Positions 32,640 to 64,000 are shown, counted from the first letter of the stretch. The stretch is DNA of 64,000 bases from Pseudobdellovibrionaceae bacterium (GCA_044359815.1 JBIKLL010000008.1:1-64000), one strand, 5' to 3'. Notes: generated by a model not told the origin, from the sequence alone. Made by a program: numbers and translations.

Positions 32640-33047
32640 AGCTGGGACGAATGCCGGCGGTTAATTTTTAAAAACATTTCTTTGAATTTACACCTTGTGA
32701 ATACATCCAGCGAGCGCGCATGGCATATCTCGTGTTGCGTAAATGCAAAGATAATTTTTTTCACTATTTTTAGACACTCGCTAACGGCCGCGGGCTCATC
32801 TCTCGTATTGAGTCATTTATTCTAACTAAGTAAATGATAATTTATTGATCATATACTTAGTTAGAATAAATGACTCAACACCAGATATACCCCGCGCGCT
32901 CGCTGCATGTGTCTAAAAACAGTAAAAACAAATTACCTTTGCATTTACGCAATACGAGAGATGAGCTTGCGGCCGTTAGCGGGTATTCACAAGGTGTGAA
33001 TTCAAAGAAATGTTTTTAAAAATTAACCGCTGGCATTCGTCCCAGCT
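32640..33047. repeat. 408-bp nested foldback element (REPIN/MITE-like) between convergent genes
   Basis: End-to-end inverted symmetry: three AT-rich near-perfect stems separated by two imperfect GC-rich A/B motif pairs. A second copy is at the window start. Confidence 0.93.
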
Positions 33048-51827: not shown

Positions 51828-52009
51828 CCTGCCGCAAATTGCAGAAAATAATTTTTCAAAATTTAAATAGATGATTTTATTAAAAAAGGTCCTCTGCGGA
51901 GCCGGGATGGCGGGGGCCCTGCCCGAGCAGAGAAGCAGGAGCTGTGACCTTTTTTAATAAAATCATCTATTTAAATTTTGAAAAATTATTTTCTGCAATT
52001 TGCGGCAGG
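51828..52009. repeat. Perfect 64-bp inverted repeat around a 54-nt GC-rich core
   Basis: 51828-51891 is the exact reverse complement of 51946-52009. Confidence 0.95.
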
Positions 52010-52023
52010 GTCAGCTTTAAGAT

Positions 52024-58520: not shown

Positions 58521-61500
58521 ATGTTTTCTAACGCCATTTTGACGGTATGGACGCTGACTCTGTTGCTCACAATGCCTGCTCTGGCTCAGTTTGGCAGCCA
58601 AGGTTTAGTTTTTCATGGTGTGGTCACTAATCCAGATGGATCTGCGATGACTGAACCGACTTCAAATTTCGTAATCGAAATTATTGGTAAATCTAGCTTG
58701 CGCGGCGATGGTACCCCTGGTGCAGATTCCTGCGTGTTGTATACAGAATCACAAGTCGGCGTTCCGCTGAATCAAGGTCGTTTTGCTGTTACAGTTGGTG
58801 ATGGTACAGGCGTGACCTTTGGAACTGGAGTTTCTAAGCTTGAAAAATTATTTGTAAACCCACCTACTACATTGTCTGGTGGAACTTCACATTCAATGGG
58901 AGCTATTAATTGTTCCAGCGGTCAATCAGCATTCCAACCTGATCAACCCAATTCATTAAGATACCTCAGAGTCGTGATCAACACTCCGACAGCTTCCATT
59001 GATTTGTTAGAAATGCCTATCCGATCTGCGCCTTTTGCTCATCAGGCTAAAGAAATCGACGGATATGATTCAATGAACATCGTCAAAATCGGTTCCAGTA
59101 ATAATAAGACCTACAGAACAATGACTGGTGGTCATTTTAATTTTCTGGTCGATTTATTTGATGGCACTTCAATCGATGCTCAAAATAGAGAACTGAAAAA
59201 CATCAGCACAACCGGTACTGATCCAAATGCTGCTGCAAACGTAAACTATGTTAATACTCATCCAATCAATCCATCTCAGTTACCTGACGTAGTAACTCCA
59301 GGAACAGTAGGAACGGCAAACTCGGCGACTCAAGTCACTGTTGACAGCAAAGGCCGTGTGACTGCTTTGGTAACAACACCTATTGCTATTGATTCAACTC
59401 AACTCATCTCAACACCTGCTGATAACGGTAAGGTTTTAGTTTCTACGGGATCTACTTGGACACCACAAACATTAACAGGCTCTATGATTTCAGGAGTTGT
59501 TACCAGCATCACTGGTACAACGGGAATCACTGTGACTGGTGGAACCACAGCTGCACCTTCTGTTGGATTAACAGCTACTGGTGTGACTGCTGGTACTTAC
59601 ACTCAGGTAACTGTTGATATGTTTGGCCGAGTCACTGCGGCTTCAAGCCCGACTTCGTTGGCTGGTTACGGAATCACTGATGCCGTTCAAAATGCGGGCG
59701 GAACTCCTAGCATTCAATCTGGAACTTTTGCTGCCAGACCGGCCACTGCAACAACAGGTGCTTTATACGTATCAACAGACACAGGCAGTATTTATTCATA
59801 TAATGGCGGCTGGACATTGATAGCTGCAGCTGCCAATGGGATTCAGACAATTAATGGTGCTGGTGGTTTGGCTCACACAATTGCAATCACCAATGCCCCT
59901 GGAGCTTTAGCCGTAAATACTTTGGCTGGTGCTCACACTATCAATATCCCAACTGCAAATGGTGCAACTACGGGATTGTTGTCATCAGCTGATTGGACAA
60001 CATTTAACAATAAATTTGATGCAACCATCACAGCTCCGGTTGCCAATCATGTTGTGTTTTTTAACGGAACACAGTGGGTGAATGGACCAATCCCAGCTGC
60101 AGCTCTGCCAAATTTAGCTGGCGATGTGGCTGGCCCCATTGGCGCAACTGTGATTCAACCAAATGCAGTTACTACGTTAAAAATCGCTGACAGTGCAGTG
60201 ACGACTGCTAAAATTGCTGACGATGCTGTCACCACAGTGAAAATCGCTGACAACAATGTGACCTTTGCAAAAACTCAAGACATCCAATCAGGAAAAATCT
60301 TAGGCAGAACAGCTGCTGGTCCTGGCGATATCCAAGAAATGGATTTAATCAGCGGTACTGGCGTGACAGTCACTCCGGGTCCTACTGGATTTACCATCAA
60401 TGCAACTGCTACTGGTTTATCAAACATCAACAACAATGAATTTCTGGCCAATACTTCCGGCGCTTCTAATCTGCCAGTAGGTACGACATTCACAGGATTT
60501 ATGGATTCTGCTATCAGCAATGCTCCTGGATCCATCATTTACCGAAGTGGCGCTGGATGGGTTGCATTGCCTCCAGGCACTAACAGTCAAATTTTATCTT
60601 TAACTGCAGGAATGCCTGCTTGGACTAACAATTCAGCGGTCAGTGCTGTTACCGGATCAAACGGAATTGCCTCCTCTGGTGGAGCAACTCCTGATATTAC
60701 AATGGCTCCGTGTCCTATCGACGGCCAAGTCAGAAAATACACTTTGGCTACAGGCACATGGGATTGTGCGAGCTCTGTCGGTGCTGAAACTGATCCTGTT
60801 TTTACATCTTTTGCAACAACACCTCGAACAGCAAATTTAGTTTATGCTGGTCCAACAACAGGTTCAGCAGCAGCTAGCTTTAGAACTCTTGATATCAACG
60901 ACATCAGAAGCTCAATCGGTGGTGGCACATTTTTAACTGGTGCTGCTTGCGGCGCTGGTCAAGCACTGACTTACGATTCAGTCACCGACACTATCAGTTG
61001 CAATACTATTTCTGTAGCAGCCACAGCGATCACTGGTATTTTGCCCATCGCTAATGGTGGTACAAATTCTGGTACAGCTTTAAACAACAACAGAATCATG
61101 GTGTCCAACGGTGGCGCTATTGTTGAAGCGGCTGCTTTGACTGATGGTCAATTACTGATTGGTTCAACTGGAGCTGCACCCGTTGCTGCAAATTTACTTG
61201 CGGGCCCTGGTGTTGCGATTGCTAATGGCGCTGGCAGCATCACTATTTCTGCTACCGGCACTGGCATCCAATCACTAAATGGTGATGGAACTCCCATTCA
61301 GACTTTTGCAAACGGAACTGCAGGAACAGCTCCGGCTTTTGCAACAGCAGCTGGTGTGCATACATTAAATATCCCAATGGCCGCAACCGCTGGTGTGACT
61401 GCAGGATTGATCTCAAATGCTGATTACACTAATTTTAATACCAAAGTTACCAGTGTTGATGCGGCTTCTACAAACACTGCATTCACAATAACAGGCGGAC

Positions 61501-64000
61501 CTATCACAACATCTGGAACACTGACATTGAACACTCCGGTACAAGCTGCGGGAACTGTGTTTGCAGCTCCTGTTGGTGGTGGTGCTCCGATTTTTAGAGC
61601 ACTGACTGCTGCTGATCTTCCAGCTATCACTTTAGCTGGTGATGTGGCTGGCCCTGTCGGAGCTACATTGATTCAACCAAACGCTGTGACGACTGGTAAA
61701 ATTGCTGACGGCAATGTGACTTATGCAAAAATCCAAAATATTTCAGGCAGCAGAATTTTAGGTCGCTATGATTTGGCTGCTGGAGCGGCTCAAGAAATTT
61801 CATTGGGCGCTGGTTTGAATCTGGATTCAGTTACAGGAGTGCTTTCAGCTTCGGGAACTGGTCTGCAAAGCCTTAATGGTTTGTCAGGTGCTACTCAGAC
61901 TTTTGCCACAGGAACTGTAGGAACTGATTTTGCGATCAGCTCTGCGGGCTCTGTACACACATTTAATTTACCAACGGCTTCTGCAACCAATCGTGGTGCT
62001 TTAAGCTCTGCTGATTGGACAACATTTAATAATAAAGTTACCAGCGTTTCTGGCTCAGGCATTGTCAATGTTACTGCAGGTACTACACCTGTTGTGTCAC
62101 TGAACGGCATTGCTGACGGAAGCATCCTGGCCAATACATCTGGTGGTTCAGCTGCTCCGACTGCAGCAACACTGACTGCGGGTGCTGGTGTTACAATTTC
62201 TAAATCTCCGGGCGCAATCACGATTGCTGCTACTGGCTTGTCACCACTGACTACCAAGGGTGATATCTATACTCACGACGGAACTGCAGCTGCCAGACAA
62301 GCAGTTGGTACTGACGGCCAATTGTTAGTTGCAAACTCTGCAACAGCTACTGGATTGGGATGGAGAAATTTAAATATTTCTGATGTTAAATCCTCTGTTG
62401 CTGGTAACTGGTTTGCGGCATCAGGCGCTTGCCCTGCTGGTCAAACACTGAGCTATTCTTCAGTTTCTGATTCAGTAACTTGCGCGGCTTTTACTGCCAC
62501 TGCATTTTCTGGAGTATTACCAATCGCCAATGGTGGTACAAACTCTAGCGCTGCATTGAACAACAACAGAATTATGGTATCCAGCGGTGGTTCAATTGTT
62601 GAAGCCCCTGCTCTGGCCAACGGTCAATTACTGATCGGATCAACTGGTGCTGCACCCGTTGCTGCAAACATCACTGCTGGCACTGGCGTTACAATTACAA
62701 ATGCTGCTGGCAGTATCACGATTGCTGCCACTGGTACTGGCATCCAATCACTAAATGGTGATGGAACTCCTATTCAAACTTTTGCTAACGGAACCGCAGG
62801 AACAGCTCCGGCATTTGCAACAGCTGGCGGAGTGCACACACTAAATATCCCAATGGCAACTACAGCCGGTGTGACTGCGGGATTAATTTCAAATGCTGAT
62901 TACGCAAATTTTAACAGCAAAGTTTCTAGTGTAACTGTCACAGCTCCAATCACAAACACAGGAACTGCAGCTGCACCCATTATTGGATTATCTGGTGACT
63001 TTGCAGCTATGGATATTACCAATATCGGATCTATCAGCATGAACTCTAACGAAAACATCAGATTGGGTAACTATGCTACTGATCCAACAGGTCTGACTGC
63101 TGCTGACAAAGGACGTACATGGTTTAACTCGACCACTAACCAAATCAAATACTGGGACGGATCAGCGGTTGTTGTCGTTGGTGTTTCAGGTGCTGGTTTA
63201 ACCAACCTAAATGGTTTGACAATTGGTTCACAAACTTTTGCAACAGGAACTGCAGGAACTGATTTTGCGATCAGCTCTGCTGGATCTGTGCACACATTCA
63301 ATTTACCAACAGCTTCTGCTGCTAATCGTGGCGCTTTAAGCTCTGCTGACTGGACTGCTTTCAACAATAAATTTGATGCTACGATCACAACACCTGCACT
63401 TAATCAGGTTGTTTACTACAACGGAACTCAGTGGGTGAATGGTTCTATTCCTGCAGCTGCATTACCAAATTTAGCTGGCGATGTGGCAGGTCCTATTGGC
63501 GCAACAGTGATTCAACCAAATGCTGTTACGACTGGAAAAATTGCTGATACCAATGTGACCTATGCAAAAATCCAAAATATTTCTGGCAGCAGAATTTTAG
63601 GCCGCTACAATGCTGCAGCTGGTGTGGCTCAAGAAATTTCTTTGGGTGCAGGTCTTAGCCTGGATTCAGGTACTGGAGTGCTTTCAGCTTCTGGCACTGG
63701 CATCCAAAGCTTGAATGGCGCTACTAACGCTACCCAATCTTTCGGCCCTGTGGGCACTGTGGGCGTTGCTCCAGCATTTTCTACTGACACTGGAACTGGA
63801 GTTCACACACTAAATGTTCCATTGGCTTCTACATTGGGTGTAACTGCTGGATTGATTTCAAACACTGACTACTTAAATTTTAGCGGCAAAGTTTCTAGCG
63901 TTGCAGCAGCTTCAAACAACACAGCATTTACGATCACTGGTGGACCAATCACTTCATCAGGAACATTGACATTGAACACTCCTCCACAAGCTGCAGGAAC
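58521..64000 (+). CDS. Giant mosaic phage-tail-fibre-like adhesin (Bdellovibrio MAT-type), 3'-truncated by the window edge
   Basis: ATG after AAGGGG, open to the window end (>1820 codons, so absent from the ORF track). Signal peptide; N-domain FHG.VTNPDG...CVLYTE...G.F.V.VG.G...RYLRV...IRSAPFA; fibre motifs VTVDSKGRVT, LAGYGITDA, AVTT.KIAD, LPIANGGT. Confidence 0.88.
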   Translation, partial: MFSNAILTVWTLTLLLTMPALAQFGSQGLVFHGVVTNPDGSAMTEPTSNFVIEIIGKSSLRGDGTPGADSCVLYTESQVGVPLNQGRFAVTVGDGTGVTFGTGVSKLEKLFVNPPTTLSGGTSHSMGAINCSSGQSAFQPDQPNSLRYLRVVINTPTASIDLLEMPIRSAPFAHQAKEIDGYDSMNIVKIGSSNNKTYRTMTGGHFNFLVDLFDGTSIDAQNRELKNISTTGTDPNAAANVNYVNTHPINPSQLPDVVTPGTVGTANSATQVTVDSKGRVTALVTTPIAIDSTQLISTPADNGKVLVSTGSTWTPQTLTGSMISGVVTSITGTTGITVTGGTTAAPSVGLTATGVTAGTYTQVTVDMFGRVTAASSPTSLAGYGITDAVQNAGGTPSIQSGTFAARPATATTGALYVSTDTGSIYSYNGGWTLIAAAANGIQTINGAGGLAHTIAITNAPGALAVNTLAGAHTINIPTANGATTGLLSSADWTTFNNKFDATITAPVANHVVFFNGTQWVNGPIPAAALPNLAGDVAGPIGATVIQPNAVTTLKIADSAVTTAKIADDAVTTVKIADNNVTFAKTQDIQSGKILGRTAAGPGDIQEMDLISGTGVTVTPGPTGFTINATATGLSNINNNEFLANTSGASNLPVGTTFTGFMDSAISNAPGSIIYRSGAGWVALPPGTNSQILSLTAGMPAWTNNSAVSAVTGSNGIASSGGATPDITMAPCPIDGQVRKYTLATGTWDCASSVGAETDPVFTSFATTPRTANLVYAGPTTGSAAASFRTLDINDIRSSIGGGTFLTGAACGAGQALTYDSVTDTISCNTISVAATAITGILPIANGGTNSGTALNNNRIMVSNGGAIVEAAALTDGQLLIGSTGAAPVAANLLAGPGVAIANGAGSITISATGTGIQSLNGDGTPIQTFANGTAGTAPAFATAAGVHTLNIPMAATAGVTAGLISNADYTNFNTKVTSVDAASTNTAFTITGGPITTSGTLTLNTPVQAAGTVFAAPVGGGAPIFRALTAADLPAITLAGDVAGPVGATLIQPNAVTTGKIADGNVTYAKIQNISGSRILGRYDLAAGAAQEISLGAGLNLDSVTGVLSASGTGLQSLNGLSGATQTFATGTVGTDFAISSAGSVHTFNLPTASATNRGALSSADWTTFNNKVTSVSGSGIVNVTAGTTPVVSLNGIADGSILANTSGGSAAPTAATLTAGAGVTISKSPGAITIAATGLSPLTTKGDIYTHDGTAAARQAVGTDGQLLVANSATATGLGWRNLNISDVKSSVAGNWFAASGACPAGQTLSYSSVSDSVTCAAFTATAFSGVLPIANGGTNSSAALNNNRIMVSSGGSIVEAPALANGQLLIGSTGAAPVAANITAGTGVTITNAAGSITIAATGTGIQSLNGDGTPIQTFANGTAGTAPAFATAGGVHTLNIPMATTAGVTAGLISNADYANFNSKVSSVTVTAPITNTGTAAAPIIGLSGDFAAMDITNIGSISMNSNENIRLGNYATDPTGLTAADKGRTWFNSTTNQIKYWDGSAVVVVGVSGAGLTNLNGLTIGSQTFATGTAGTDFAISSAGSVHTFNLPTASAANRGALSSADWTAFNNKFDATITTPALNQVVYYNGTQWVNGSIPAAALPNLAGDVAGPIGATVIQPNAVTTGKIADTNVTYAKIQNISGSRILGRYNAAAGVAQEISLGAGLSLDSGTGVLSASGTGIQSLNGATNATQSFGPVGTVGVAPAFSTDTGTGVHTLNVPLASTLGVTAGLISNTDYLNFSGKVSSVAAASNNTAFTITGGPITSSGTLTLNTPPQAAG

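Follow-up and report, generated by a model that had tools for sequence, protein, structure and literature searches.

In bacteria, a palindromic repeat family is usually defined by the conservation of its ends. The ERIC/IRU, Correia/NEMIS, RUP, and Rickettsia RPE elements have conserved termini, which are transposase-binding inverted repeats, and target duplications are seen. attC sites carry the boxes RYYYAAC and GTTRRRY and occur with an integron integrase and cassette arrays, and REPs are biased in position toward gene 3' ends. The REP/BIME and REPIN repeats of Enterobacteria and Pseudomonas go with RAYT transposases (PMC3116915, PMC3337134). The arms of inverted repeats are reportedly homogenized and expanded by template switching (PMC8604942, PMC13100816). 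Here, we compare these systems with a nested foldback from a Pseudobdellovibrionaceae bacterium.

The source genome (GCA_044359815.1, here G000) is an assembly of 2,949,856 bases in 125 contigs with 41% G+C. Positions 1 to 64000 of contig C13 (JBIKLL010000008.1) form the window, that is, the whole 64,000-nucleotide stretch analyzed, and a 408-bp noncoding nested foldback occupies positions 32640 to 33047. It fills the gap between convergent ORFs, as a first-pass annotation of this DNA had stated (Table 1). A repeat search recovered the nested layout that the annotation described, with 65-nt outer arms (32640-32704 and 32983-33047, 97% complementary), middle stems (I5 and I6), and a 41-nt apical stem (32798-32838 and 32848-32888, 90% complementary, 9-nt loop). 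From outside to inside, the layers are L0, L1, the outer core (A...B), L2, the inverted inner core, L3, and the loop, making the window copy a composite in which a second unit sits inverted in the apex of the outer core unit. Weaker cross-pairings (I2, 75%; I3, 80%) bear out the suggested alternative fold of A with the reverse complement of A and of the reverse complement of B with B. The A and B motifs and their reverse complements were located as claimed, with coordinates 1 to 3 nt different from the annotated ones. The window contains three occurrences of each of the A and B 12/13-mers, where shuffled sequence would give 0.04 and 0.00, and these form the three A/B pairs that had been counted; the third, spanning 31-134, is the inner unit of a second composite copy (A at 31, B at 122, plus-strand reading). 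Among copies of the family, L0 is loosely conserved, with a consensus like TGGCCCACTTGTCTGCG, and the loop is flipped in some. Each L0 arm contains a small terminator-like hairpin and a T-rich tail.

Table 1. Positions of the foldback, its neighbors, and the HUH-like paralogs (window coordinates unless a contig is named)
Feature	Position	Strand	Remarks
L0 left, outermost GC-rich arm	32640-32662		Pairs with 33025-33047; most variable layer
L1 left, AT-rich arm	32663-32704		Pairs with 32983-33024
Outer core, A half	32708-32737	+	CAGCGAGCGCGC..CATATCTCGTGTTG; CAGCGAGCGCGC...GTGTTG
L2 left, imperfect stem joining outer and inner cores	32738-32778		Pairs with 32906-32949 (I5, I6)
Inner core unit, B half	32779-32810	-	Minus-strand reading
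L3, variable apical hairpin	32811-32875		9-nt loop at 32839-32847 (I4)
Inner core unit, A half	32876-32905	-	Minus-strand reading
L2 right arm	32906-32949		Partner of L2 left
Outer core, B half	32950-32981	+	CAATACGAGAGATGAGCTTGCGGCCGTTAGCG; CAATAC...GCGGCCGTTAGCG
L1 and L0 right arms	32983-33047		Inverted repeat I1
Second composite copy, opposite orientation, cut by contig start	1-266	-	Motif matches and blastn
Left flanking ORF, 212 aa	31993-32631	+	Stop 9 nt ahead of the element; no Pfam match
Right flanking ORF, 373 aa	33056-34177	-	Stop 9 nt past the element; no Pfam match
HUH-like paralogs	C23:186-818, C48:48162-48794, C56:2966-3613, C47:11949-12581, C49:93316-93948, C100:636-1268, C125:2381-3013, C8:23376-24140

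The foldback is not alone of its kind in the window: a second, unrelated palindromic family is represented at 51833-52010, where 63-bp near-perfect AT-rich arms enclose a 54-nt GC-rich asymmetric core (CTCTGCGGAGCCGGGATGGCGGGGGCCC...). This second family matches no Rfam family at threshold, and blastn with a related copy (C101:4308-4537) finds it in more than 40 contigs, often near A/B units. Farther along, at 58521-63998, an ORF that runs off the end of the window encodes more than 1826 aa; it has long internal repeats and looks like a giant repetitive surface protein. Surface-protein repeats, which are not IS, account for most repeats of at least 1 kb in this genome.

The annotation had proposed that the foldback belongs to a dispersed, noncoding repeat family. 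Indeed, a degenerate B pattern occurs 130 times in G000 (67 forward and 63 reverse), with no occurrence of the reversed control pattern. Blastn with the 408 bp finds 125 nonoverlapping loci, 29 of which cover nearly the whole element at 75-91% identity. Bracket-matching of the A and B motifs yields 106 pairs, of which 102 are no longer than 600 bp, in size classes of 71-88, 101-102, 124, and 231-299 nt, the last of which encloses an inverted inner unit; 97 orphan motifs are left over, many at contig ends. No A..B pair encloses an ORF of its own, in agreement with the claim that the element carries no enzyme gene. Four long-range A..B pairs (1.9-19 kb) were rejected as chance pairings, and in the two examined for ORFs (1.9 and 4.0 kb) nothing transposase-like was found. 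Simple units with one core, L1-type arms, and an L3 hairpin also exist, as do shorter "S" type units (for example, C10:1026, C26:9788, and C33:133506). In a second kind of nest, a simple unit lies within the apex of another simple unit (C106:57190, C83:620, and C6:21000); the inner unit is inverted in both nest kinds, although two kinds do not suffice to establish a rule. The elements fragment the assemblies of these genomes, with 39 of 95 merged loci lying within 400 bp of a contig end. One full-length copy, at C48:28187-28260, directly follows a putative tRNA-gene 3' end, whose sequence in the left flank is GGTTCAAATCC....

We sought support for the junctions in contigs from four lake-water metagenome runs. 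In all four, contigs run without a single difference from the left gene to position 32686 and from position 33001 into the right gene, and the depth of the interior is about 30 to 100 times that of the flanks. With both junctions confirmed and the interior repeated, the foldback is therefore real and repeated. No contig spanning the interior and no empty form of the locus was seen in these four runs.

The conserved part of the element is a core of about 75 to 105 nt. Its lower half consists of GCGAGCGCGC and GCGGCCGTTAGC, its mid stem of GC(G/A)TATC and GAGA(C/T)G, in which an A.G mismatch is invariant and G.T wobbles are conserved, and an apical hairpin with a loop of the GNA or GNNA type sits on top. 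As had been predicted from the three pairs in the window, the A/B mismatches are kept genome-wide: exactly GTGTTG facing CAATAC (the G.T wobble) together with CATATCT facing GAGATG (the A.G mismatch) is found in 63 of 102 paired units, in a tally whose pattern left the A half unparsed in 23 units and the B half in 7. The wobble is "corrected" to CAACAC with that A half in 4 of the 102, and 2 are of the short type CGTATCT/CAACAC/GAGACG. We trained a covariance model of the core (R1) on 14 units, in whose alignment both partners vary in 19 of the 33 predicted pairs. Among 27 sense copies, aligned by fitting to the model and with related rows, 24 of the 33 core pairs change on both sides, and 95.6% of 887 cells pair, compared with 71.5 ± 1.0% after shuffling (reached by none of 500 shuffles) and 33 to 47% in controls with slid partners.

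Conservation is highest at GCGTATC ... GAGACG. Two U:A pairs flanking the unpaired A that faces a G are invariant in all 27 copies, confirming that the nonpaired bases are conserved, and G.U pairs are frequent at two other positions (19/27 and 22/27). The two strands of the core are not equivalent. At C33:133490-133600, the A-to-B strand is predicted to fold better than its complement, both as RNA (-55.7 versus -39.8 kcal/mol) and as DNA (-31.2 versus -24.2 kcal/mol). The model scores 110 bits in sense versus 33 in antisense. The conserved mismatches suggest that the core is read as a folded single strand, and we propose that it keeps these mismatches because it is read in this form.

The arms vary from copy to copy. 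Across the 29 full copies, 96.1% of 1184 L1 cells are Watson-Crick paired, versus 83.3% identity between copies; L3 arms are 89% complementary on average (median, 93%), versus 76% identity between copies. When pairing is extended outwards, whole palindromes measure 97 to 559 bp, and 18 of 60 extend over an ORF 3' end (crudely called ORFs, at least 100 aa). At C33:15414-15845, the final 9 codons and the stop of a 287-aa ORF lie in one arm, of which the other arm is a slightly diverged inverted copy. The C-terminal tail of this ORF, which might have pointed to the original arm, aligns in none of 39 relatives, and among the matches listed, alignments to other genomes end at residues 68 to 272 of 282. 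The arms at two further loci (C24:5445-5910 and C33:133413-133677) contain the ends of both convergent ORFs, and their turnover has probably changed the final codons and the stop in one or both ORFs of each pair.

Because the arms reach into ORF ends, the near-perfect long stems that the annotation had described are best accounted for by copy-back at the DNA level and not by selection on a fold. Matched changes in the two arms, flipped loops, and host sequence within arms all fit template switching. Quasipalindrome template-switch mutagenesis and inverted-repeat expansion (PMC7202029, PMC8604942, PMC13100816) would explain the complementary changes of the arms here, the flipped loops, and growth into flanks; this is a mutational process rather than an element family, and it leaves the kept mismatches of the core unexplained. 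The SbcD model TIGR00619 has no match over its cut-off in any of five Bdellovibrionales genomes (G000, G110, G093, G043, and G008), one of them element-free, whereas it matched 13 of 14 controls, of which 8 passed the cut-off. Palindromes of 400 to 560 bp might be tolerated because the SbcCD hairpin nuclease is missing, a condition that is not specific to carriers.

Outside this genome, the family is patchily distributed. The B pattern has no match in 40 relatives, of which 24 belong to its own family and 16 to the order. When one genome per species was scanned with the exact pattern, two "Bdellovibrionales bacterium" MAGs contributed three true copies, alongside four chance matches. Of 150 other genomes in the order, 16 have covariance-model matches: 0 of 31 in the same family and 8 of 26, 7 of 31, and 1 of 3 in three other families (f2, f6, and f9), with from 1 to at least 25 matches per positive genome. 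The one-contig genome G110 has 48 copies of the pattern versus 1 of a control pattern; like G000, it is element-rich, as are G043, G093, G150, and G172. By these comparisons, the core is an older structured hairpin common to other families of the order, and its expansion here is lineage-specific. Viral and metagenome pattern matches (7 of 7 viral and 80 of 120 metagenome loci inspected) were rejected, nearly all being chance matches in GC-rich coding DNA or in a tRNA-like-adjacent stretch; a single locus, L148, is the sole likely true copy among those inspected. Since they return mostly chance matches, these scans are uninformative on habitat or phage carriage.

Two species of another genus (G129 and G121) carry a single copy just after dapB. 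Their cores are identical at 77 of 77 positions, compared with 535 of 723 (74%) in dapB and 203 of 298 in the downstream region. The inner 60 nt of the arms are close to unrelated between the two species (28/60 and 30/60 identical), yet within each species the arms pair almost perfectly. Homology is retained in the outermost arm segments, where the two species differ by a matched pair of changes. A core identical throughout, with arms at about 50%, indicates that the core has been held fixed while the arms were replaced. The annotation had recommended looking for empty sites at orthologous loci; as in the four metagenome runs, none was seen after dapB, where five of the six other species of this genus examined carry a different gene.

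On balance, we think it probable that the family is a noncoding, nonautonomous, mobile palindromic repeat of the MITE/REPIN type, with a core read as a folded single strand and arms made by copy-back. The core would be read, more likely as DNA than as RNA, by a factor encoded elsewhere. The long arms would be unselected, kept complementary, replaced, and lengthened by template switching during replication, and this copy-back would sometimes copy the end of an ORF into the opposite arm. Copies would survive mainly between gene 3' ends. As no transposase, parent IS, target-site duplication, or empty site was found, we infer mobility from copy number and distribution, and the single-stranded reading of the core and the copy-back origin of the arms are inferred as well. 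What the data show directly are copy number, distribution, conservation of structure, the bias in position, and the overlap of arms with ORFs. Two observations count against parts of this reading: a core kept perfectly at a single-copy orthologous locus resembles a case of host-level purifying selection more than one of selfish DNA, and the GNNA/GNA loops and conserved G.U pairs would fit RNA as well as DNA.

These same observations point to a host-serving RNA element in 3' untranslated regions, one that would bind protein, stabilize, or terminate, and whose inverted nesting would give each convergent transcript a sense copy. The position of the elements, which supports the mobile-repeat reading as well, also fits: with ORFs of at least 120 aa from a crude ORF calling, 35 of 55 evaluable loci lie between convergent ORFs, 17 are tandem, 3 are divergent, and none is inside an ORF, compared with 392 convergent among 2393 junctions at baseline (binomial P = 5e-15). 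However, orientation relative to the upstream gene is random in tandem contexts (8 sense versus 6 antisense), and the gaps between convergent ORFs hold simple and nested units equally often (19 versus 18). The invariant A.G mismatch, the 16-kcal/mol folding advantage of the A-to-B strand as RNA, and the terminator-like hairpin in each L0 arm would suit an RNA, yet a promoter-like site was looked for and none was found, the arms overlap coding sequence, and 134 of the 150 genomes of the order have no model match. The 130 copies, the contig breaks, and the nesting likewise speak against it, and we judge this explanation unlikely. Among the copies of G110, a replication-strand bias that seemed apparent in the first 24 matches failed on all 48 (15 plus and 19 minus versus 8:6 on the two replichores, with dnaA at 2.56 Mb and the terminus assumed to lie opposite dnaA).

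Another alternative is a REPIN-like population moved by a RAYT-like Y1/HUH transposase. G000 encodes one RAYT-like protein, at C8:9504-10160, which scores 72.5 bits against NF047646, below the cut-off of 80, and matches PF01797 at E = 3.6e-8. The position bias matches that of REPs, and a homolog is present in 16 of 17 element-positive genomes versus 87 of 134 element-negative ones. The family is nonetheless found in 103 of 151 genomes regardless of the element, and G043, which is 99% complete, has 23 model matches and no RAYT-like homolog. In G110, among the matches listed, the nearest elements are 13 to 42 kb from three of the four RAYT-like genes. No A/B motif lies within 3 kb of any Y1-like gene of G000, and no R1 match was found in the eight Y1-like loci searched, which comprise five in other genomes and include the C8 locus, where the sole inverted repeat found lies inside the gene. 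The annotation's search for a RAYT or TnpA-Y1 (HUH) gene flanked by A/B motifs thus yields none in G000. We consider movement by this transposase quite improbable.

G000 also encodes eight HUH-like paralogs of about 203 aa (motif GNHLHLK; Table 1), which are 87-93% identical and have weak PF01797 matches and no NCBIfam match. Their conservation is limited to the ORF and about 80 bp upstream, and each lies amid different short tandem-repeat or microsatellite arrays. Homologs, often in multiple copies, occur in 84 of 151 genomes of the order. We rejected this family as the mobilizer, as homologs are present in 9 of 17 element-positive genomes versus those 84 of 151 overall and no R1 match was found in the four loci searched. 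The link to REP/RAYT or IS200/605 that the annotation had drawn is thus not upheld: the RAYT-like and HUH genes have no nearby A/B motif and no core-model match in their flanks, neither gene family shows a clear specific co-occurrence with the element, and no TnpB was found. IS110 and TnpB domains were both absent from G000, and one rve domain was found.

A folded-DNA recombination site for a tyrosine recombinase, either attC-like or hijacking Xer, is very unlikely, despite a likeness in form. As in attC sites, the core has a conserved hairpin base, extrahelical bases that mark one strand, and a variable terminal structure above the base, and is presumably recognized as folded single-stranded DNA; it is a bulged hairpin with single extrahelical bases on one strand, and the GTTAGCG that terminates B resembles the R' consensus of attC, GTTRRRY. 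Against this, A has no AAC-containing partner box, R''/R' are unmatched, and the units lie between ordinary genes, nested and in both orientations, with no cassette arrays. The only two tyrosine recombinases found in G000 are both best matched by XerC/XerD, and neither reaches the cut-off of the integron-integrase model, so that attC-type recombination, which the annotation had raised, is unlikely. A foldback assembly artefact can be dismissed: short-read assemblers can create hairpin chimeras and no contig spanned the interior in four runs, but both junctions were reproduced without differences in 4/4 runs, 29 full-length copies lie inside contigs, and the same family is present 48 times in the one-contig G110.

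The mobile palindromic repeat that we favor is of a familiar class but set apart from its described members, and it lacks defining features of both REP/REPIN and IS-derived MITEs. It resembles the ERIC/IRU, Correia/NEMIS, RUP, and Rickettsia RPE elements in being a noncoding, intergenic, multicopy, lineage-specific long hairpin of 100 to 400 bp. Unlike in these MITE-like palindromes, conservation is lowest in the outermost layers and highest in the interior core, and neither a target duplication nor a parent IS was found. Among repeats of at least 450 bp, which are surface-protein repeats and HUH paralogs, there is no IS with A/B ends, in an assembly that is 91% complete and from which an IS could be missing; no direct repeat shared at the aligned ends of the 29 copies was seen. 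The repeated unit is the A..B core of 71 to 124 nt or more rather than a short REP doublet, and inverted pairs are nested one in the other rather than side by side.

With REP/BIME elements and REPINs, the family shares dozens to hundreds of extragenic imperfect palindromes in mosaic or inverted arrangements with a preference for gene 3' ends, conserved mismatches suggesting reading of a folded single strand, and a RAYT-like gene in the genome. REPs measure 20 to 40 nt, whereas the conserved part here is an asymmetric core of 75 to 105 nt. Compared with those of REPINs, the arms here are copy-specific and reach 150 nt, the RAYT-like gene has no flanking repeat, and units nest at the apex instead of forming doublets.

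No Rfam family matches at the gathering threshold, as a check proposed in the annotation showed, the best scores coming from long-hairpin microRNA-precursor models (57.1 versus 96.2 bits), and the 408 bp matches nothing in plasmid and phage collections. Full-text literature searches found no published description of such repeats in Bdellovibrio, and the passages of PMC3526173 examined are not relevant to them. All three outcomes that the first-pass annotation had named as counting against it were tested, and we found no known family, no loss of the mismatches across copies, and no artefact. Its phrase "novel system" is overstated, since palindromic intergenic repeats are a familiar kind. What is unusual about the family is the combination of a conserved asymmetric interior core, disposable copy-specific arms that extend into genes, and nesting at hairpin tips.

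A bolder version of the mobile-repeat reading, which we put forward tentatively as possible rather than likely, is that the core acts as a "palindrome seed." It would be read as folded single-stranded DNA by a Bdellovibrionales protein, land preferentially at the tips of hairpins already present, giving rise to the nested, inverted units, and induce the replication machinery to copy one flank onto the other, thereby growing arms from host DNA and rewriting the 3' ends of neighboring genes. If true, this would be a mode of propagation and gene-end turnover distinct from that of transposase-bound terminal repeats.

Whereas bacterial palindromic repeats usually keep their ends, this family keeps an interior, asymmetric, structured core; its long perfect arms are disposable, and part of their sequence comes from host DNA, gene ends included. 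The elements can thereby change the C termini of proteins. They also offer a natural system for palindrome growth by template switching, in a group where five tested genomes lacked an SbcD match over the cut-off. Reading of the core as folded single-stranded DNA, if it occurs, would point to an undescribed activity of repeat propagation in the predatory Bdellovibrionales.
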